A DNA stretch of 59,968 nucleotides, filler included, from Dimargaris cristalligena (taxonomy: Eukaryota), in NCBI GenBank assembly GCA_003614675.1. It is 11 parts of 11 records of this genome, joined end to end, with 100 filler letters (N's around TTAATTAATTAA, not from the genome) between each part and the next. Parts side by side here need not be neighbours in the genome. Positions count along the whole stretch, not along the records: positions 5,509 to 10,887 come from ML003638.1; 10 more parts are not named here. The stretch is one strand, 5' to 3'. A program made the position numbers and the translations under genes. This document shows positions 426-13,000 of the stretch, one piece after another; the stretch's first letter is position 1, and every line of letters begins with the position of its first letter. Below the pieces are notes generated by a model that was given only the letters and a program-made list of their open reading frames with translations, did no database searches and was not told where the DNA came from.

Positions 426-1070
426 TTTATTTATGGCTTTTTTTATAGTTTGGATTAAGTTCGGCCCACTTGTATAATGTTTCAAGTATTGAACTGGGTG
501 ACATATTTTCGGACAGCAGCGTCAGACTCGCTCATCGGAATCATCCTTCTACAACAGGGGCAGATTCTCCTATTACATTCGTCTAGTAGTGTGAAATTGT
601 ATCTTTATATTAAATACAAAGGACTAATACGTGTGCCTTTTATGTATTTTATACAGTCGGTAACTGGCACTTGTCTCTACAGGAGTATCCCTCAAGACTA
701 TTGTAAAATATTTCAATGAGGGTAGTCCATTTCTCCCAATATACTTACTTTAGAATTAATTTTGTCCTAAAATCGATCCCATGATGGGTGCCACAACTTC
801 ATTTTAGTAAACATATGTTTTCTGCCTATGCTCGCATCCACCAGCAATACGAGCTCATTTTTATTGAGTGGGCTTGTTTACTCCAGGACTTTCAATAATT
901 AAATGGTAAATAAAGACCAATGCTGTGATTGAATCAAGGCAACGAATGTTCGAATGTCGGCCTGTAGACTTTATTATAGGATTAGTTAACTTACCTGCTC
1001 TGCTCCGCTATCACTGCTTTTCTTGCTAAAGTATACCCGCTCGGTGGATAGTTTATTTCCCCTTAAAGCA

Positions 1071-4000
1071 ATGTCGTCCACATGCCCTTCCCCCTCTGTA
1101 CCCCCACCCGATGCACCTACATTGGAACCCACCCCACTTCCGACCGATAGCTGCTCCCGCTACTCCCTTCGCAAACGGAAAGCCATTGCCCTCTACCCCT
1201 ACACTCTATTTTCCTGGGTCCAGCCCGATACTCTCCCGGTGGGCCGAAATAAAACCGTCGATTTGTCGGTTTTAGCGGACGGAACAGCTATACCCAAAAC
1301 CTCCGCCGCCAACAATCACTGCTCTTTGCGAAATGCCACCGGTATTCTCTCAGACAGACCCCCACTCGACCGGAGCAGTCAGAATTCCCCCGATTTCTCA
1401 AGGCGGAAGCGACAGCGAACTACGCATGTCCGTCCTACTTCCGATGGCCTTCAAGTCCGACCTCATATAGTCCGAACTCATAAGCGGTGGCGTCAGCTAT
1501 TACAAACTCGCCCCTGGGAAGCCACGGCCTGGCGTTCGGTCAATCGGCGACTTATCCCTTTAGGCTATCGTTTGTCGGGTCTGCTTAGTTCAAGCCGCCG
1601 CCGTCCTCGAACCGGTACCTGTTTACGTTTACTACCCAAGGCCCAGGCCCTGCCAAAGTCCCAACGGACCGCTACCGCATCAACCCAACCCGCCTCCGGA
1701 ACCCGGCATTCCCAAGGACGCGCCCAACGCCCCGGCCGCCGGCATATTAACAATACCCTCCTATTCGGGGATTCCGATGACGACGACCCCACCTTCTCTC
1801 CCACCGATTTATCCCCCTTACCCAGTCAGTGGGACGGGGTGGACTCTTCAGGCACACCAGTAGACCAACAATGGCCGACTGACCATCCGAGCACAGACCG
1901 ACGGCATCGGAAGTTACCCCAGGTAATCACTAAGCGACATTTGGCCGGAAAATTACCGGCCTCATTTCTGCGGCTGATTCATAATAGCTCCCAATCCGAC
2001 CGATCCTCTGGCTCTCATTTCAACCGCCACCCACGGCATCGACAATCCACTACCACGGTCCCTTTTGCTAATCCCGGGCCCGCACTACCTCATGTAGGCC
2101 GTACTCGGATGCAGCCCCGTGACCACGCCGCCGCTTTACGAAATCTAGCCGCCATGGTCGATAGCGATAGTGATCTATCAGTGATTACCCTTTCCGATAC
2201 CGAGCCCGATCCATTTCGCTTGTCCGAACAGTCTGGCTTTGGTGACCGTCGGGAAAGGTCGCCCAGCCGGCGAACCCGCCCTTCAGTTGTTGATGATATT
2301 TTCGCCTTTGTTTTGAGTGACCCGGAAACCCAATCACTATCTGACTCAACCAACCATCCCACTACCTTTATCCAACCTACCACTTCTGGGCAACGGCGCC
2401 GGAGGAAGCAACGGCAATCTAAGCTAGACCAGCAGGTCGCCCGGGAATGGAAATCATTGTTGAATGACAGTGACTCTGGGCCCGGATCTGACCTCGATCC
2501 GGAGGTTTCGTACATAGGTCAGGGCCCCACGCCACGATACAAGCAACTAGCACTAAATGGTAAACGATCAACTAAACCAGAGCGGCCGCGCCCTCGCCAG
2601 ACTAGACCTGATCAACGCCCTTTTCGCCACCATCGTGGAGGTAGGGTACAGGCCCAATCCCGTATTCCCTGGGCTGACACCCCCTCCGACATAGACCCAG
2701 GTCTGGCTATGCCCTACCGGCCTCGCAGACCTCCTGTCGTCAGGGAATTTGAATTTTTGGACTCCCAGTTCCGAAATTTTGAGGCACCCGAGACCCCTGG
2801 TGTGAGCTCTATCCACCCGATCCGGCGGTTGGCTAAACAAAGCCGACTGCCGAGTTCAAAGCCTGTGGGATCGGGCAGCGAATCCGATGGCTCTGACCAA
2901 CCCCGACACCCCAACCGGGTATCTAACCGCGGCCTAACCTTGGTGAGTAGCCAACGACGGGCCCAGCCCAGGACAAATGTTAACCATCCGAAGACGCCAA
3001 GAAATCGCCCAGGACAAAGCAGAAATGACCGACTCTCCCAAAAGTCAAGCGACAGCTGGGGCCGAACCAAGAATACGAAAGCGAAACGCACTAATCGACC
3101 GGTGCCACGTTCGGCCCGGCCCACTCGACCACCTAAGCTGTCTGCTCCACCGGCAAATAAACCCATTCTCAGTTTTTTAGACTACTGTGCACGCGAATAT
3201 GGCATACCCACCAATACGGTAATGCCCTCACAACTAAGCCAGGCACTTTCCAGCCCCCCACTACCGGCCCGGCCCACTCGGACTGGATCGCACGTAGCAG
3301 CCGGGTCAAACAAGGGTAACCCCGCGTCCGATGGTTCGTTAAGGACCCGCATGCCCGATTGTATCCGTGTGGCGCACCGTACTTTACGGAAACGGGCGGC
3401 CCGGGGATTGTCCGTTATTGACAGGCCGTGGTCCAAAATTATCCAACCCGTGCCTCTGCATAACCCGAATCCATCCCAATCCTCCCATGAACAGGCTCGA
3501 CCAGTTCCATCCAAACGAAGTCGGCGGAATTTATTTAACCCCCCACCGTCCACACCACCTATGTGCAGACTGCCGGACGCAATGAATCATACCACTGGGA
3601 CTGCTATTGTGGAAAATATTAATACTGGTCTAGTTTCACATGATGTACCTTTCTCCCCTACTCCCTCTCAACCTATTTCACCCAGCTGGCAGTTGGGTCG
3701 GTCCCATGCGGCGGGTGATGCCACCCAACTTTGTACACCCCTTTTTCATTGGCAGACAGATGCCACCGACTTTGCCGCACCAATTCTTACACAGTGGATT
3801 AATGATATACGATCATCGGCGAGACAATCAACTCATGTATCCTCCATCGCACCGAATCTCGACTCAGGTCTCGGAATTTCTCATGAACCGTGGGTGGAAT
3901 TACCCCCAGACCATGAGGAATTTAACCTTAATGCTACTGAGCCATATTCCCCTTCAGCCTTCCCCAGCGACCGGGCCAGTAGCCCACCGCCGCCTCCTGA

Positions 4001-5408
4001 ACCGTCTCTTCCAACCCCGATTGTATTTCCCGACTATAGCCACTGGTTCCACCATGACCTTGTCACCCAATTACCACCTGGAATCGGCTTTTCAGGAAAG
4101 GGGTATGCCGGCCAGGGTCGCCTTCTCCAAATTGTCGAGTTGATCCAAAATTGGTCCCAAGCACCCAGCGTCACGAGTGTTGCCGATGGTGCGGTACCCT
4201 CAGCATTGCCGCCCACCGAACACCGCCTCATCTTCGACCAATCGGTTCCATTATGGGGGACACTGCCTACCTGGACCGCTAATTTCAAGGCCCTCCTTCT
4301 CCAATTCAATTTCAGGAGGTTTAAATTGGTACACGCCGACGGTGCGGCTGGCCCTGGTCTTCCTACCTTCCCCCACGGTGCAATCCCAGCTGACGTCCAA
4401 TTACTTCAGCCCATCGGCCCTGCTGAGGTTCGACAGTCCCTACGCGACATTATGGTCTTTCACGAATTTACGGCTGACTTCATTGACCAATGCCTCCCCC
4501 ACTATTCCCTCAGCGAACTAGAACAGGTTGCCCAGAATCTATTTAATGACATCGACTACTTAAGTTCCGACTTTTTATTCGTTCTGGCTAAACGCCAAAC
4601 CGGCAACTTGGTTGATGAAGTATCCATCCTAAAGGCGATCACCAGCCAGCGTACTCGAATAACCGACCTTGGCAACAGCTGGCGGGCAACCAGTAAGACA
4701 CCATCGGTTCAACTGGCTTTTCGCGGGCTTTGGGCCTATGTGGACTGGCTGGTCCGGCTACGATCCCTTCTCCAAAGTCGACTAGCGCCCACTGAGGGCG
4801 GGCCTCTCGCACCGTCGCATTCGCTAGTCATCCAGTGTCAAGTTCGCATTGCAGCCCTGGTGTGGTGCATTCTGATTTGGCTCATCCGACTAAACCTAAG
4901 TCCCTGGCCCTATAATACCAGCGAGCCCGATCGCGCGTTCTGTTTTAACCAAATGATTGCGACGTGGACAGCCGATTTATGGCACCAGATTCTGACCACT
5001 CTTAACTCGGGGCTATTGCCCCTCACCTACCCAGCGACCCTGGTTCCCCACATTTGGAAGGCCAGTACCCGTTGGAGTGACGTGATTCAACTTGTCCAGA
5101 CCGAGTGGCTAGTATCCAATATATCCTCGAAGTCTACAACTATCTTAGCGACCGAGGATAGTGATCGCCAAATTCCAGTCTGGACTATAGTGGGTGATGT
5201 AATTCAGGCCCCCTTGTCCTTAGCCAACGAGGATAATGGACTTTTAAAGCGCGCCATATCCAATGGGCCCCCACTTGAAGCGACTGCATCAACCGAACAT
5301 CCTTCAACGACGGTAGCCTGTACTTTACGTTGGTTGGTTTTCCAGATGGAGAAAAGTTGGGCGCTATTGTATTCGCTAAACCCCTGGCTTCATGTCGACC
5401 AGCGGGGC
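1071..5408 (+). CDS. Mms22/Mus7-like DNA repair protein, 3'-truncated by contig end
   Basis: ORF of more than 1440 aa from ATG 1071, open to the contig edge. A long disordered N-terminus contains short motifs resembling fungal Mus7/Mms22 (RYSLRKRKAIALYPYTL, HLAGKLPASFLRL, PDCIRVAHRTLRKR, LPPGIGFSGKGYAGQGRL), followed by a helical domain. Assignment by motif recall only. Confidence 0.6.
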
Positions 5409-5508
5409 NNNNNNNNNNNNNNNNNNNNNNNNNNNNNNNNNNNNNNNNNNNNTTAATTAATTAANNNNNNNNNNNNNNNNNNNNNNNNNNNNNNNNNNNN
5501 NNNNNNNN
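5409..5508. other. Artificial contig-joining spacer (first of ten)
   Basis: N44-TTAATTAATTAA-N44, with stops in all six frames. Identical spacers at 10888-10987, 16363-16462, 21838-21937, 27312-27411, 32779-32878, 38229-38328, 43667-43766, 49103-49202 and 54538-54637. Confidence 0.99.
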
Positions 5509-6655
5509 TCGCCGTTGTCCGTTACCCTGATCCCGGGATTGGATGATTCCAGGGACTCTGCGGAAGGCTACCGAGTGACCTGGTGGACCCCTCTCTTTGA
5601 TGATGAACTGGGGATGTCTCGTCCTTACCAGCGCTCCACCACCTTCCACGACAGTCCCAACGGTAGTGCATTGAGCCAGGCTCAGCAGTTCGTTAAGCAA
5701 GTCCAGGCCTCCCTGTTGACTATTTGGGAGGTACCAGCCCAGGTTTTCTACGAACTTTCCTGCCTGATCCCGTCTTTCCTGGAACAATTCCGCCTATATC
5801 GCCCGGGTTCCGGGGTCAATTTCTCTACGGAATCGGAAATGTCCTTCTGTTCCATGTTGAAGGCATTGATTCCTCTGGAGTGCTCCCAGCCCCACGATGA
5901 GTCCCTGATTAATCTCAATTGGTTGACCGGTTTATGGCTGGGATCGGGTCTAACTGGGTCCGTCCAGTTGGCATTCCCTTCCCCCAATTAGGACTAAGAT
6001 TAATTGCATCGGAAGCCGGCTTTTCATGAAGGTCGCCGAATTCGATACGTACCCCTCCGGCCAAAGCCATCTGGAAATTCGAGATATCCGCTTGGATGAT
6101 ACTGTCGATCGGAAGCCCGTATTGCACTCGATTTTGAACCACCTGGGGATCTTGCATACCCGCTACATCAGCGATGCCGTTTTGGCATGCCTGGTTAACC
6201 AATCCGCCCAGCATCGACTGGCTTTACTGGCCGGTCTGGTGGATGCCCACGGGGTTCGATTTACCGATGCCCATGGTTGGGAATCTATCCGCCTTTACCA
6301 AACGGCGGATAATGAAAGCATTCCCCGTTTCACCCAGCACCTTGCTCGATCCCTAGGAATGACCGCCGACGCCCGCCTGGTTTCCGTGGAAGGTCGCTTC
6401 AGTGCTAGCCTCAACCGGAAGCTTCCCGCCGGCGCACTCGTGTACAAGGTCACCCTGCGGTCACACCCATTCCTCCGTCTGCTAGACTGCGCCCACACCG
6501 ACCGGGTCCCCCGAGTGACCCGCCCCACCGTGCCCGCGACTAATCAATTCAAATTTACCATTGTACCCGTTCCCAATGGGGGTGAATACTTTGGGTTTGA
6601 AGTGGAAGGACCCACCCCTCGCTTCCTGCTCCGTGATTTTACGGTGGCCCACAAT
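5509..6655 (+). mobile_element. Prp8 intein 1 (N-terminus off contig) with degenerate LAGLIDADG endonuclease
   Basis: Ends [24 protein letters not shown] (blocks F/G, His-Asn, +1 Cys at 6656). LAGLIDADG-like helices are [10 protein letters not shown] (frame of ORF 5515) and [10 protein letters not shown] (frame of ORF 6026). Confidence 0.93.
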
Positions 6656-9600
6656 TGCCAAGTCTTTGACCAGGAACTGGAAGCTCTCCAAATCCAGTCT
6701 GTGTCTAAGGAACAGATTCACCCTCGCAAGAGTTATAAGATGAATAGCTCCTGTTTCGCCGAGGGTACCCGTCTGTTGATGGCCAATGGCACCCACCGTG
6801 CGGTTGAAAGCCTCCGATCGGGCGATCTTCTGATGGGTGATGACGGAAGGGCCCGTCGCATCGAAGCCACATGGTGGGGTCGCAGCGATACCCTGTACCG
6901 GGTCGATCAGAACCAGGCCGCCAGCTTTACCGTTACGGACGAGCATATCCTGGTTCTCGTCGCCCAGGGACTGCGCCCGAAGATTAATGTGTCGGGTTCG
7001 CCTAACCGGCCTGCAGTGACCGTTCAGTTCATTGATCGGGCCCTCCGCACCCACAAGCGAATCTTTGAAGGCAAGGCACTGACCCGTGTAGCCTCCGAAG
7101 CACTCGACTGGCTCCGCACTCTGCCATCAGAAAAGCTGGTGCGTGACGGTGATATTGTGGAAATGACTGTTAAGGACTACCGTTGTCTTCCTGCTGCTAT
7201 CCAGGCCGGGCTAATGGGCTACCGGACCGACGTTCAGACCAAGCCCCAGTCCTTATTGGATCCCTACTTCTTAGGCCTCTGGTTGGGTGGCCCCCTCCGC
7301 CATCGGGCCGGTGTACTGACTACTCGCCCCGACGTGGCCGAGCCAGTCCGCCGGTACGCCGCTACCCTGGGTCTGACTTACCGTAGTAAGTCATACCGCC
7401 TCTTTGATCAGGTACTCCAAGTGATCGAACTGATACCCACCAACCCCAGCACCGCTTTATTTGTTGATGAGGCCCTGGCCCATTACGATCTATTGGGCAA
7501 TCCCGACCCGCGCCTACCCGCGGTGTACTTTGGAGGTTCCTCGGCCGACCGCCAGGCGTTGCTCCGTGGCTTCAGCGATTCGGCTTCGGTATACCTGGCC
7601 GACTGCGGATCCACCTATACCCAGTACCTGACTCCTCTGCTGCTGGCTGATCTAGCCGCCGTTTATCGCAGTCTGGACCTGGAGGACCGCCGTAACTGTC
7701 TCAGTCCCGCCTTGAACCATCTGTTAGCCAAAATACCCGTTCCTAGCACACTTGGGGTCGTTGCCGGGCGATCGTCCAAGGACGCCCCGACCACTAACTT
7801 GACCAGCCTGCAGATTACCCCCGTGCATAACGCGGGACAGGTTTACATTGGCTTGCGAACCGACGCTAACCAGCGCTTCCAGCTGTGGGACCACAGTGTG
7901 GTACACAATTGTGCCGATATTCTCCTCAACGCGGCCTACAAGTGGAGTACGTCCCGACCCAGCCTGCTTACCGATAGTAAGGACGTGATGGACGGCACCA
8001 CCACCCAGAAAATGTGGGTGGATGTGCAGCTGCGATGGGGTGACTTCGATTCCCACGATATCGAACGGTACACCCGCGCCAAGTTCCTGGATTACAGCAC
8101 CGATAGCATGAGTATTTACCCGTCCCCTACGGGTATTATGGTTGGCCTCGACTTGGCTTACAACCAGCACTCAGCCTATGGCCATTGGCCCCCTGGCTTT
8201 AAGCCCTTGATGTCTCAGGCCATGAATAAGATCATGAAGGCCAACCCGGCCCTGTTCGTATTACGCGAGCGCATTCGCAAGGGTCTGCAGCTGTACTCCA
8301 GTGAACCGACCGAGCCCTACCTATCCAGCCAGACCATCACCGAAATCTTCAGTAACCAGATCATTTGGTTCATTGACGACACCAACGTGTACCGAGTCAC
8401 CACCCACCGAACCTTCGAGGGGAATATCACCACCAAGCCCATTAACGGCGTGGTGCTTATCTTTAACCCCCGCACGGGCCAGGCTTTCCTCAAGGTGATT
8501 CATGCCTCCGTGTTCGCTGGTCAGAAGCGTCTAGGTCAACTAGCCAAGTGGAAGACTGCCGAGGAGGTGGTGGCCCTGATCCGTTCCCTACCCGTAGAAG
8601 AACAGCCCCGTCAACTGATTGTGACCCGTAAGGGTATGTTGGACCCCCTGGAGATTCACTGTCTGGATTTCCCTAATGTGGTGATTCGCGGTAGCGAACT
8701 CCAACTACCCTTCCAAGCCTGTCTCCAGGTTGAGAAGTTCGGTGATATGATCCTTAAGGCGACTGAACCCAAGATGTGCCTGTACAACCTGTATGATGAC
8801 TGGGTCAAGACCATCTCCCCCTACACGGCCTTTTCCCGCTTGATTCTAATTCTCCGCGGCCTGCACGTCAACACAGAGCGGGCTAAGATGATTCTGCGGC
8901 CGGACCGTAACACTCTGACCAAAGAGTATCACGTCTGGCCCACCTTTACCGATGAAGAATGGATCAAGGTTGAAGTGGCCCTCAAGGACCTAATTCTCAA
9001 CGACTATGGCAAAAAGAACAACGTGTCCACGGCCTCCCTCACCCAGTCCGAAATCCGGGACATTATCCTGGGTATGCAGATCAGTGCCCCTTCGCTGCAA
9101 CGCCAGCAGATTGCCGAAATTGAGAAGCAGGCCAAGGAACAGTCGCAGCTCACGGCGGTGACCACCAAGTCCCGGAACGTGCACGGAGATGAGATCATCG
9201 TTACCACGACCAGTAACTACGAAACCCAGACCTTTTCATCCAAGACTGACTGGCGGGTGCGTGCGATTTCCGCCAACAATTTGCATCTGCGTATCAACAA
9301 CCTGTTTGTGTCCGCGGATGACATTGGCCAGTCCGGCTTTACCTACGTGCTGCCGAAGAACATCCTGCGCCGCTTTATCATGTCGGCCGATCTGCGCACT
9401 CAGATCGCGGGTTACTTGTATGGTGTTACCCCCGCTGGCCGCTCCGACGTTAAGGAAATCCACTGTATCGCACTGGTTCCCCAGTGGGGTACCCACCGCG
9501 AAGTCCACCTCCCGCACGACCTGCCCCACCATCCACTGATCAAGGATATGGAGCCTCTGGGTTGGATCCATACGCAACCCAACGAAACAGCCCAACTCAG

Positions 9601-10042
9601 CCCCCAGGACGTCACTATGCACGCCAAGACCATGGCAGAACACAAGTCGTGGGACGGCGAGGCCACCACCATCATCACCTGTTCGTTTACCCCCGGCAGT
9701 TGTTCCCTGGCCGCTTACAAACTCACTCCCCAGGGCTACGAGTGGGGCGCGCAGAACCGGGACACGGTCTCTGCCCAACCCGCTGGTTACTCGCTCGGCC
9801 ACTTTGAGAAGGTCCAGATGCTTTTGTCCGATAAATACCAGGGCTTCTTCTTGGTGCCTAGTGACGGAGTATGGAATTACAACTTCATGGGCCCCAACCA
9901 TCGGGCGGATATGAAGTACGAAGTGGAATTGGATATTCCCCACGAGTTCTACCATGAGGTTCATCGACCCAACCACTTCCTTAACTTTACAGCCATGGAA
10001 CGGGCTACTATTGAGTCAGAACGTGAAGACCCCCTCAGCTAA
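5509..10042 (+). CDS. PRP8: Pre-mRNA splicing factor Prp8, 3' half (5'-truncated), interrupted by two inteins
   Basis: Exteins 6656-6751 ([32 protein letters not shown]) and 7910-10042 (CADILL...[15 protein letters not shown]...[21 protein letters not shown]...WIHTQPNE...[14 protein letters not shown]) join into contiguous, highly conserved Prp8 covering the endonuclease-like, RNase H-like and Jab1/MPN regions. There is a frame break near 5954-5991 inside intein 1. Confidence 0.98.
6752..7909 (+). mobile_element. Prp8 intein 2, complete, 386 aa, with degenerate LAGLIDADG endonuclease
   Basis: Block [14 protein letters not shown], block [12 protein letters not shown] (TxxH), block [11 protein letters not shown], block [11 protein letters not shown], blocks [25 protein letters not shown]. 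Removing it restores KMNSS-CADILL. Confidence 0.97.
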
Positions 10043-13000
10043 AAATAGAAAGAAGGAGGTCGGTTCGTTATCATTGTGATTTAATATCATTACTTTATTA
10101 TTCAATTCATACCAGTTATATCATCGCTTATGTTGTTTTACACCTTTACTCTTTATTCACAGAGTTAGAGCCACCGTTTCGTTCCGCTATTCTATTCCTA
10201 TTTCTATTCTCATTGGATGATTATCTTAGCAAGGTGCTCTCCAGCCTCCAGCATTCTAGCTGACCAAATTAAAGAGATATTTAAAATTTTCTTCTCTTAA
10301 GTCAACAGTGGTAGGCTATTCGAATAGTTTATTCATGTGAATATATTTTTAGGGAACGCCAGCCCCGGCTAATATTCATTTATGCTTGAAATAGTTGGGA
10401 TACGACCATTCATTATTACACCCAATGTAATAATGGTGCATAAATTTCACGATTACATCAATAAGGATGAGCGCCCTATATATCAGCAAAGGTGAGCATA
10501 TGGGAGAAGTTCAATTAAGCTATATAACGATTTGAATGAAAGTTCCAATTGATGTAGCGGGACTATTTTTTTATCGAAACGGGAAATAGGTAGATCGATG
10601 GGACTTTTTTTTAAACCGAAGGAAAAATGATCCCCGACCCTGTGATCAATCATAAGACCTATAATAAATCTATGAATAATGACTCGGGAAAGCCAAAAAA
10701 AAAAGTGTACTATGTAAATTGATATCTGGCAACCGGACTAGTAGTAAATTAGCTTTCTTTAACTACTTTTTACTATTTTTCAATACTTTCTACTACTTAT
10801 TAAAGGACTATTCCTATACTGAATTAAATTACAATAAACTTAAACTTTCTTTTATATATAATCTTGCAGCTAGTGTATAGAAACTGTNNNNNNNNNNNNN
10901 NNNNNNNNNNNNNNNNNNNNNNNNNNNNNNNTTAATTAATTAANNNNNNNNNNNNNNNNNNNNNNNNNNNNNNNNNNNNNNNNNNNNTAGGTCTTCCGAA
11001 TACTCCTGCAAGGGTGTAACTGTAGGATGTGCAAGGATCACATGACGAAGGTTGCGACTAGTTTGTCTTGTGGAGAGGATAATCCATCCCGACCCATGTC
11101 AGTACATCTAGCTACACTTAGCCAAATAATCCCGAAGATACATCCGAAGCCAACAATTGATTTCATATACCAATAATAACGACGACGGGCCTTACGCCCG
11201 GATATGAACTGCATAACAAGTACAGCCCGAGGGCTATAATGAATTGATAGCAAACATCATGGATTTACCTCATGAGAGGGTGGTTCATGGACATTAAATA
11301 AACCTTATCCCTCTCATGTACCTCTTCCAGCGCATGCTGCGTTATAAACCAATGCATCTAAACTATTACGAAAGCAGAAATGAAGACGGTATTCATAAGG
11401 AGGATAACGCCACTAGGGAAAGAAATAGATATCGTGTCTTCCAATTTTGCTCCATATCTGTATTGTCTCGCTCCACTTTTCAGATGACCTGCTTGGAATA
11501 AAATCCCTCTAATAGGAAAATACGGGCCATGCCTGCTAACTAATACATGCATGATTATTCGATACATAGGTGGATCTGGGCCCATAGCGTCGGAGGGACC
11601 CCTTTGGTGTCACCTCTAGTCAACGCTATGGCCGTTTTGGAATAAACCACAGGTCATCTTAAGCACATGGACATCCGTGATCATCATTTAGAGGCATTGG
11701 AGGCGTGCCTAAACATTCATTTAAATATGAATGAGTAAAAATAGATTATTTGTACATGTGAATGGGTGGATGGATTGTGGCTTGAGGGAATGAAGCAGGT
11801 GAGGGTATAGCTTAAGCGGCTGAGGAAGAACATTTTTCCTGCCAAATGTCCATACCCAAGGCTTTAGGGTCAGCGTGTCAGCGTGTCAGCTAGCCGGTAT
11901 AGATATCCGAAGCCGGGTGGTAGAATAAGGGGCACCCGACTATTTTTCTATCCCGATTCTGGTAGGTATAGTAGAGTTCGCTTTACATTCCGTTTAGTCG
12001 AGTTAACATTTTACCTTGAGGCGATACCTGATAACAACTATACATTAGCCTAGTCTTAAGACACCGAATTCCTTAGATAACCTAAAACGGATGGATCCAG
12101 CCGCCCTACCCCTAAGGGATCGAGGTGGTAGCGAAGGGTGCCACGCCTTGATTTCATCCTGTAAGGGACAAGAATATATTTTTCCTGCTGCCTCTAGCCT
12201 GATATACTGGAGCAGTGGCTTAGTCCCGCAACTCTATCTTTCTTGGGCGCTCCTCCGATTGTATCAGCTGTTCGCTCTTTAGAAATGGCATGATGGTTCC
12301 CGATAACGACTGAGTAAACGTTTGGTTTTTTAAAATCTAGCCCAGGAATTAAATGGGTGGATAGAACCATCGGGTGTATCAATCACTTTTCTGATCGTGG
12401 TGCCATTTAACCAACTCCTGAAGGAAACTGTCTGGAGGCTGTCTGGAACAATGTCCTTTGGATTGGGTCTATTGCTGCCGTAAAACCTACCCCATATTAT
12501 CCATAGCGAATGTATTGATATTGTGAACCCAATGGTTGCACCCAGCTTCGCACTAAAATGGCGGATATTTGAATAGTGTCCAATTCCCCTTACCAATACT
12601 GTACCCACAGGCTATCTGATGCGGTGTCTATAAGTAACACCCTATTTTCATTGGTGCATAATATTAACCCTAAGAACATTTATAATCGCAGAAAGAAAAA
12701 CAAATAATCCCAAATAATTCGTCGGCTGCGCCTAAAAGGTGTAACAGTTGGTTGGCTGAAGAAAGTATGAGACGTTCCAAAATCCAGCCAGTAATATAAT
12801 GCTTGTGATGTAGTTCCACTTGTAAGAGTCTCGACAAGATGATTAAACATGGTTGGCTGATTTTGGTAGGCTAAAAAAAATGAAAAAAGAACTTTGGAGG
12901 GGGAGAATTCTTGAGGGTCAAACCAGGCTGCCTTTAGCTAAGGGGAAATTGGAGACCAAGAGGTGTGGTGGGGCCGCCTCTTTCTGTACCACACGATTGG

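Follow-up and report, generated by a model that had tools for sequence, protein, structure and literature searches.

Two predicted inteins 32 residues apart in Prp8 of a Dimargaritales-like fungus, at site d and at KMNSS/CADILL

Prp8 is the textbook hot spot for inteins among eukaryotic proteins. Two adjacent predicted inteins are described here from the 3' part of a PRP8 gene, carried by the second contig of a 59,968-base window of fungal DNA. The window is the whole stretch that was analysed and consists of 11 contigs, each of ~5.4 kb, cut by 10 artificial spacers. As far as given in the accessible text of two papers (PMC6805012, PMC10710043), the published count stands at seven lettered Prp8 insertion sites plus one added in 2023, and the record for inteins in one protein at five. 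Site d of Bathycoccus is set 87 residues downstream of site a in the available portion of Monier et al. 2013 (PMC3749507), and the junction VMDL/CQVF is printed as a known site in that of Gallot-Lavallee et al. 2023 on Anaeramoeba (PMC10710043).

The window locus is, with high probability, the 3' portion of a single-exon-like PRP8 of a Dimargaritales-like fungus, with two class 1 inteins at site d and at KMNSS/CADILL, both fixed and probably endonuclease-dead.

Two inteins in the 3' part of PRP8

Contig 2 (5509-10887) was found to hold the 3' part of PRP8 on the + strand. A long + frame was read from 5954 to 10042, and Pfam profiles matched PRP8_domainIV (7e-119), JAB/MPN and PROCT on it, with a Hom_end_hint match at the frame start. 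The Prp8 stop codon is TAA at 10040-10042. The features of the locus are:

5509..6655, + strand: predicted intein 1, C-terminal part, assigned to Prp8 site d, with the +1 residue equivalent to human PRPF8 C1594
6656..6751, + strand: extein between the inteins, 32 codons, equivalent to human PRPF8 1594-1625
6752..7909, + strand: predicted intein 2, complete, 386 residues, in KMNSS/CADILL, with the +1 residue equivalent to human PRPF8 C1626 and yeast 1698
7910..10042, + strand: Prp8 C-extein, comprising the rest of the endonuclease-like region, RNase H-like domain IV, Jab1/MPN and PROCT

The exteins were searched against PDB chains with phmmer. The 32-residue extein (query 1-33) was aligned to human PRPF8 1594-1626 (E 1.6e-8), and the sequence after 7909 to human PRPF8 1625-2332 and yeast Prp8 1698-2407, gap-free. 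Because these alignments are gap-free, the inserts sit exactly before human PRPF8 C1594 and C1626. The corresponding yeast residues, 1666 and 1698, are presumed to belong to the N-terminal portion of the endonuclease-like domain. The first-pass annotation had proposed two Prp8 inteins 32 extein residues apart, and both spacing and boundaries were found to be exact by frame reading, by phmmer and by comparison with the Dispira homologues. It had also named conserved Prp8 cysteines as the +1 residues, and this was borne out in 81 of 84 Prp8 proteins at site 1 and 83 of 84 at site 2. These 84 proteins were selected by regular expression, do not include those of Smittium and Geranomyces, and were used for conservation of the +1 Cys only.

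Intein 2 starts with Cys1 (CFAEGT), carries block B as VTDEHILVL (TDEH) at 6932-6958, where it is conserved in Dispira, and ends at the junction VVHN/C at 7909/7910. It was matched by Pfam Hom_end_hint at 50.1 bits (cut-off 32.1) and by PI-SceI in the PDB at E 1.5e-7, the PI-SceI and Cryptococcus Prp8 inteins together spanning 1.5e-7 to 2e-5. Identity to the Dispira inteins at KMNSS/CADILL was 40% over the full length. Cys1, TDEH, His-Asn and the +1 Cys are common to intein 2 and to the KMNSS/CADILL inteins of Dispira, Smittium and Geranomyces.

Only the C-terminal ~80% of intein 1 is on the contig; its first ~90 residues, and blocks A and B with them, are off it. The C-terminal junction is VAHN/C at 6655/6656 (His-Asn, then Cys +1); the C-side of the insertion junction, CQVFDQ, is present after the intein, and the N-side is off contig. 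In a tblastn search, residues 100-234 of the Dispira simplex site-d intein were placed at 5566-5949 in one frame and residues 268-445 at 6122-6655 in the next. An alignment with five site-d inteins showed intein 1 to be homologous lengthwise to those of Dispira and Tieghemiomyces, which begin with Cys. The sole Pfam match to intein 1 was Hom_end, at 19.6 bits (cut-off 21.1), the N-terminal Hint part being off contig. Intein-free homologues have the Prp8 flanks of both sites joined directly, as seen in the human alignment and in Capsaspora, where VMDLCQVFDQ and MNSSCAD are uninterrupted. On these residues and flanks, both inserts are classified as predicted class 1 inteins.

Insertion sites were mapped by BLAST of an intein-free reference Prp8 (P0092, 2389 residues) against each protein. 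For the published sites, proteins of the organisms named in the text of the papers were fetched and mapped, and letters were assigned from that text. The resulting P0092 positions are:

602: site g, AFHL/CREIL, Acytostelium
774: site b, EAWR/CWKAN, Batrachochytrium and Capsaspora
1373: site e, Capsaspora and Anaeramoeba
1562: site a (WEKA/SGFEE), mapped
1649: site d, VMDL/CQVF, window intein 1
1743: site f, KFLDY/T, Capsaspora
1896: the 'novel' site of 2023, AKWK/TAEE, Anaeramoeba
1931: site c, Spizellomyces

The +1 residue of site a is at 1562 and window site 1 at 1649, a difference of 87 residues. Because its VMDL/CQVF junction falls 87 residues after site a, as in the Bathycoccus protein of Monier et al. 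2013, intein 1 is identified from its position as a putative allele of published site d. The site of intein 2, at 1681, equals none of the eight published sites as mapped from the papers' text. Neither intein is at the classic WEKA/SGFEE site (1562 against 1649 and 1681), as had been stated in the first-pass annotation. The contig does not reach that site, where a third intein is plausible, since all three Dimargaritales Prp8 records (3/3) carry one at site a.

Site letters were found to be inconsistent between papers, because one sentence of PMC10710043 gives the letter 'b' to VMDL/CQVF and 'd' to EAFR/CWKA, opposite to Monier et al. 2013, and the available text of the same paper calls the new AKWK/TAEE site 'Prp8-f', a letter already taken by a Capsaspora site. 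In the Capsaspora record P0351 (3413 residues), Prp8 was followed to reference residue 1742, then through the site-f intein to an unrelated end; this gene model is without the C-terminal third of Prp8.

Occupation of the two sites in other organisms was determined by a homologue search with the intein region, which yielded 94 proteins (E up to 0.001) from 3009 candidates of 2385-5000 residues. By far the best homologues, at E 2.3e-185, were those of Dispira parvispora (43% identity) and D. simplex (42%), each aligned over 94% of the query. Site 1 was occupied in six of the 94 (P0002, P0003, P0005, P0006, P0007, P0012) and site 2 in four (P0002, P0003, P0004, P0008); both were occupied in two, the Dispira species P0002 and P0003, with the same 32-residue spacing. 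Scanning 1.84 billion representatives produced 5066 matches. Among the best 150 of these, Prp8 extein was present in 75 and the site 2 insert in two, P0096 and P0099, the latter ending inside the insert. Thirty Prp8 proteins of at least 3414 residues were then considered, and the 20 new ones among them were mapped along with 3 cluster members; site 2 was thereby also found occupied in Geranomyces michiganensis and Smittium simulii, and site 1 in Entrophospora and a Chloropicon record. From a further 106 proteins, 13 were newly mapped and Smittium megazygosporum was added at site 2; some of the 106 had been mapped in earlier sets, and the rest, mostly ascomycetes, fell outside the mapping. Public records with site 2 occupied comprise Dispira (2 species), Smittium (4), Geranomyces and unnamed metagenome proteins. 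In Tieghemiomyces, site 1 is occupied and site 2 is empty.

No paper describing Prp8 inteins in Kickxellomycotina, the KMNSS/CADILL site or its tandem with site d was found in literature searches. As far as searched, the KMNSS/CADILL site and its tandem with site d would thus be undescribed in print, yet not unique. The suggestion that the sites might be undescribed holds for site 2, which is outside the eight published, and fails for site 1, which coincides with published site d. The suggestion that their co-occupation might be undescribed stands as regards papers and falls as regards public records, in which D. simplex and D. parvispora carry both. The first-pass annotation had held that prior description of the sites and of their co-occupation in close relatives would remove their novelty; since site 2 and the tandem are present in the Dispira records, most of this applies, save the published description.

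Identity of the C-extein was 82.5% to Dispira, 77% to Tieghemiomyces, ~76% to Mortierellaceae, 72-76% to Mucoromycota and 66-70% to Kickxellales and Harpellales. Because the C-extein is nearest to Dispira and then to Tieghemiomyces, the host is placed, on protein identity, as a Dimargaritales-like member of Kickxellomycotina, distinct from the compared species. A tblastn search of the whole window with Dispira Prp8 gave no further PRP8 piece on the other 10 contigs.

Endonuclease motifs, descent and splicing

Blocks C and E of LAGLIDADG inteins each hold an active-site Asp or Glu (Duan et al. 1997, as quoted in the accessible part of bioRxiv 10.1101/2023.05.24.542141). The corresponding motifs of the window are:

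5923..5949, + strand: intein 1, LAGLIDADG motif 1 (block C), LTGLWLGSG, with Ser at the catalytic-acid position
6224..6253, + strand: intein 1, LAGLIDADG motif 2 (block E), with His at the catalytic-acid position; covered by the Hom_end match below cut-off
7268..7294, + strand: intein 2, LAGLIDADG motif 1, FLGLWLGGP, with Gly against Asp (residue 218) of GLWIGDG in PI-SceI
7559..7588, + strand: intein 2, presumed LAGLIDADG motif 2, with no acid at the expected position; register set by eye, with no profile

In the motif 1 column of intein 1, Glu is found in Anaeramoeba, Asp in P0006, and Ser, Cys and Ala in the three proteins from Dimargaritales. In the motif 2 column, Dispira and Tieghemiomyces have Cys or Val and Anaeramoeba has Asp. 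Motif 1 of intein 2 was aligned through query residues 171-224 to PI-SceI 209-263, with a clear motif match and a weak domain score. No LAGLIDADG or Hom_end family scored above its Pfam cut-off on either intein, intein 2 giving no match to these families. The two motifs ending in Asp or Glu that mark an active LAGLIDADG endonuclease were found in neither intein: the acid is missing from three of the four motifs by alignment and from the fourth by eye. The endonucleases of both inteins are most likely dead.

For a quick tree search in IQ-TREE, 91 inteins were each reduced to their first 110 and last 60 residues, which gave 165 columns. Of 108 extracted inteins, 17 were left out for unclear boundaries, and window intein 1 was outside the tree because its N-terminus is missing. 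Seven site-1681 inteins and window intein 2 formed one clade (SH-like approximate likelihood-ratio test, SH-aLRT, 91), within which intein 2 grouped with the two Dispira inteins at a support of 96; the KMNSS/CADILL inteins, intein 2 included, are thus recovered as putatively monophyletic. This clade was placed beside the site-a inteins with weak support (80-85). Intein labels clustered by site overall: 22 changes were counted, whereas shuffled labels averaged 66. The Dimargaritales site-d inteins stood apart from those of Anaeramoeba, the Chloropicon-like protein and P0006, again with weak support.

Inteins at P0092 673 (YRFN/TGPVG) and 1855 (GNLT/TKPIN) start with CFP and end in Gly-Asn/Thr. 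They formed one long-branched clade across sites (SH-aLRT 97), for which the tool warns of a long-branch join; such a clade would fit an intein jump between sites within PRP8.

Late in the homing cycle, inteins are usually fixed, immobile and decaying, and an essential gene does not tolerate their imprecise loss. Since the catalytic acids are missing and the splicing residues kept, the two inteins are most likely immobile, fixed elements, and most likely have been inherited vertically since before the split from Dispira. They probably persist only since imprecise loss would wreck an essential gene.

Each intein would be translated within the Prp8 precursor and would then excise itself. An N-S acyl shift at Cys1 of the intein would be followed by transesterification onto the Cys at +1, after which the terminal Asn would cyclise and an S-N shift would complete the reaction; in each case the early steps would rely on that intein's Cys1 and on the conserved +1 Cys of the extein. 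After both excisions, the 32-residue extein would be ligated on both sides. On this evidence, the precursor very likely undergoes two standard class 1 splicing reactions that are independent of each other.

Several points weigh against this account of the locus. Splicing is deduced only from conserved residues and from the essential nature of the gene, and the first nucleophile of intein 1 lies off the contig, as do blocks A and B. A second, intein-free PRP8 copy is possible in this genome; many duplicated BUSCOs in Dimargaritales assemblies are mentioned in the available part of PMC9866270. The tree was quick and built on short splicing blocks, with deeper nodes at only 80-91. Loss of the endonucleases was judged from motif alignment, in which the second motif of intein 2 was set by eye and the PI-SceI domain gave a weak score of 6.8 bits.

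A benefit to the host is an improbable reason for the retention of the inteins. Splicing would then be conditional, sensitive to redox state or metals, and would gate Prp8 maturation and hence spliceosome assembly. Both inteins are taken to use Cys1 and Cys +1, they look endonuclease-dead yet are conserved between genera, and the site-a Prp8 intein of Cryptococcus was inhibited by copper and zinc in a reporter according to the accessible text of PMC6805012. Against this, an endonuclease-dead intein in an essential gene is expected to persist without any benefit, precise deletion alone being tolerated, and the KMNSS/CADILL site holds only mini-inteins in Smittium and Geranomyces and none in Tieghemiomyces. 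Fixed, vertically inherited elements remain the preferred explanation.

At least ten further Prp8 sites lie outside the published eight and show the hallmarks of inteins (Cys1, His-Asn or Gly-Asn, and Cys, Ser or Thr at +1), with boundaries uncertain at some:

P0092 660, 673, 932, 986, 1346, 1479, 1513, 1600, 1820 and 1855: further Prp8 insertion sites

Example junctions are QIRM/CKDLK, NTLF/SKDRH, TINR/SNVY and GNLT/TKPIN. The Prp8 of D. simplex carries seven inteins, at P0092 660, 774, 986, 1479, 1562, 1649 and 1681, and several Coemansia and Kickxella records of 4700-5000 residues carry five to six; the intein-rich Kickxellomycotina records include P0003, P0295, P0293, P0290, P0291 and P0248. 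Close spacing was also found elsewhere in Prp8, at Coemansia sites 1561/1600 (39 residues) and at P0006 sites 1820/1855 (35 residues), and the 32-residue spacing of the window is, judged by these mapped positions, apparently not exceptional among Prp8 proteins. An extended claim, that Kickxellomycotina Prp8 is the most intein-dense protein known, with at least ten uncatalogued sites, KMNSS/CADILL among them, and some inteins 32-39 residues apart, and that these Cys-dependent, endonuclease-dead inteins persist across genera because their splicing serves as a redox or metal checkpoint on spliceosome assembly, is as a whole improbable.

The frame of intein 1 in reads

In the window as deposited, intein 1 is split over two frames, 5509-5991 (stop at 5989-5991) and 5954-6655. 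The contig was compared with Logan contigs of four public runs. Run X1 (depth 237) is possibly the source sample, and runs X2 and X3 belong to a study other than that of X1. The difference and the contig boundary are:

5981..5982, + strand: point at which the assembly is without 11 bases that reads carry, present as an 11-base insertion in contigs of X1, X2 and X3
5409..5508, no strand: spacer between contigs, N44-TTAATTAATTAA-N44, after which the PRP8 contig begins at 5509

Once the 11 bases are added, 5509-6655 reads through 386 codons without meeting a stop, in either version of the insertion. The apparent frameshift of intein 1 is an assembly error, because the 11 extra bases behind 5981 in X1, X2 and X3 restore the frame. 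The X1 read contig, 17,464 bases long, runs on for 12.4 kb upstream of 5509, which makes the end of the deposited contig another assembly artefact. A C>A change from the deposited contig was seen at 5590 in X1, X2 and X3. Low-quality contig ends of this assembly can imitate frameshifts.

Were the frame break real, this PRP8 copy would be a decaying pseudogene from which no protein is made, as the two frames and the stop at 5989-5991 of the deposited window would suggest. The read contigs, those of the deep X1 run among them, carry the 11 bases that give a 386-codon open frame, and an open frame also runs through the remaining 4 kb of the copy, with 82.5% identity to Dispira Prp8, which makes decay very unlikely. 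Still less likely is a short spliceosomal intron bridging the frame change. A GT...AG stretch of 58 bases at 5958-6015, drawn by eye, has a suitable length (remainder 1 on division by 3) and an AT-rich 3' half; the 11-base insertion falls inside this supposed intron and accounts for the frame change without it, and the candidate was dropped once the reads showed the missing bases.

The whole of 5509-7912 is spanned by one X1 contig, 5982-7912 by an X3 contig and 5890-6831 by an X2 contig. Since read contigs cross the junctions of intein 1, extein and intein 2, the arrangement is not chimeric, and the objection of a chimeric contig allowed for in the first-pass annotation fails. No joint skipping either intein was found in the read contigs of the runs. 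The least credible explanation is a chimeric contig, or one derived from a contaminant such as the host fungus in a mycoparasite culture: the assembly consists of short contigs and this contig end has errors (5590 C>A and the 11 missing bases), but single read contigs from two studies span the junctions, the extein is closest to Dimargaritales (82.5% and 77%) with Mucoromycota lower (72-76%), and the same two-intein architecture is found in two Dispira species.

Elsewhere in the window, contig 1 holds a 1488-codon open frame at 990-5408 on the + strand, which is rich in Ser, Pro and Arg and runs into the spacer. The G+C content is ~56% in coding sequence against 30-37% outside it (window 10043-10887 and 1-1000), so coding regions of this genome are distinguishable by composition.

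Comparison with known systems

Together with the public records of its relatives, the locus adds KMNSS/CADILL (human PRPF8 C1626), inside the endonuclease-like region, to the catalogue of Prp8 sites. Closely spaced fixed inteins appear to be normal in one fungal subphylum, and the Prp8 of Kickxellomycotina would be far more intein-laden than the literature states. The mechanism is ordinary and leaves the picture of intein function unchanged. The data are useful for intein catalogues, for natural tandem-intein cassettes in splicing studies and for predicting genes in fungi of this group, whose PRP8 is swollen by inteins to 4-5 kb of protein.

The closest known systems are the Prp8 proteins of D. 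simplex (P0003, 4512 residues) and D. parvispora (P0002, 3999 residues, partial), which are deposited as 'hypothetical protein'. They resemble the window in having inteins at VMDL/CQVF and KMNSS/CADILL with a 32-residue spacer, the pairs being homologous over their whole length, and the LAGLIDADG catalytic acids are likewise missing. They differ in identity, which is ~40% for intein 2 and ~34% for the aligned part of intein 1 against 82.5% for the extein, and the low intein identity beside that of the extein places the window in another genus-level lineage. D. simplex has five more inteins upstream; the corresponding part of the window gene is off contig.

Site-d inteins of Bathycoccus and Anaeramoeba, the former compared through a Chloropicon-like green-algal protein as a stand-in for the Bathycoccus sequence, share with intein 1 the VMDL/CQVF junction, Cys +1 and the form of a full LAGLIDADG-type intein. 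The Anaeramoeba intein keeps both catalytic acids, whereas those of the window and of Dimargaritales are without them.

Mini-inteins of four Smittium species and Geranomyces michiganensis agree with intein 2 in junction, splicing blocks and clade. At 228-244 residues they lack an endonuclease domain, whereas intein 2 has 386 residues and keeps a degenerate one. The Cryptococcus Prp8 site-a mini-inteins (PDB 6mx6, 6mwy) and PI-SceI (1dfa, 1vde) share with intein 2 a Hint-type splicing domain, a very similar block A and the same mechanism class; the Cryptococcus inteins differ from it by insertion site, and PI-SceI, from VMA1 of S. cerevisiae, by host protein.

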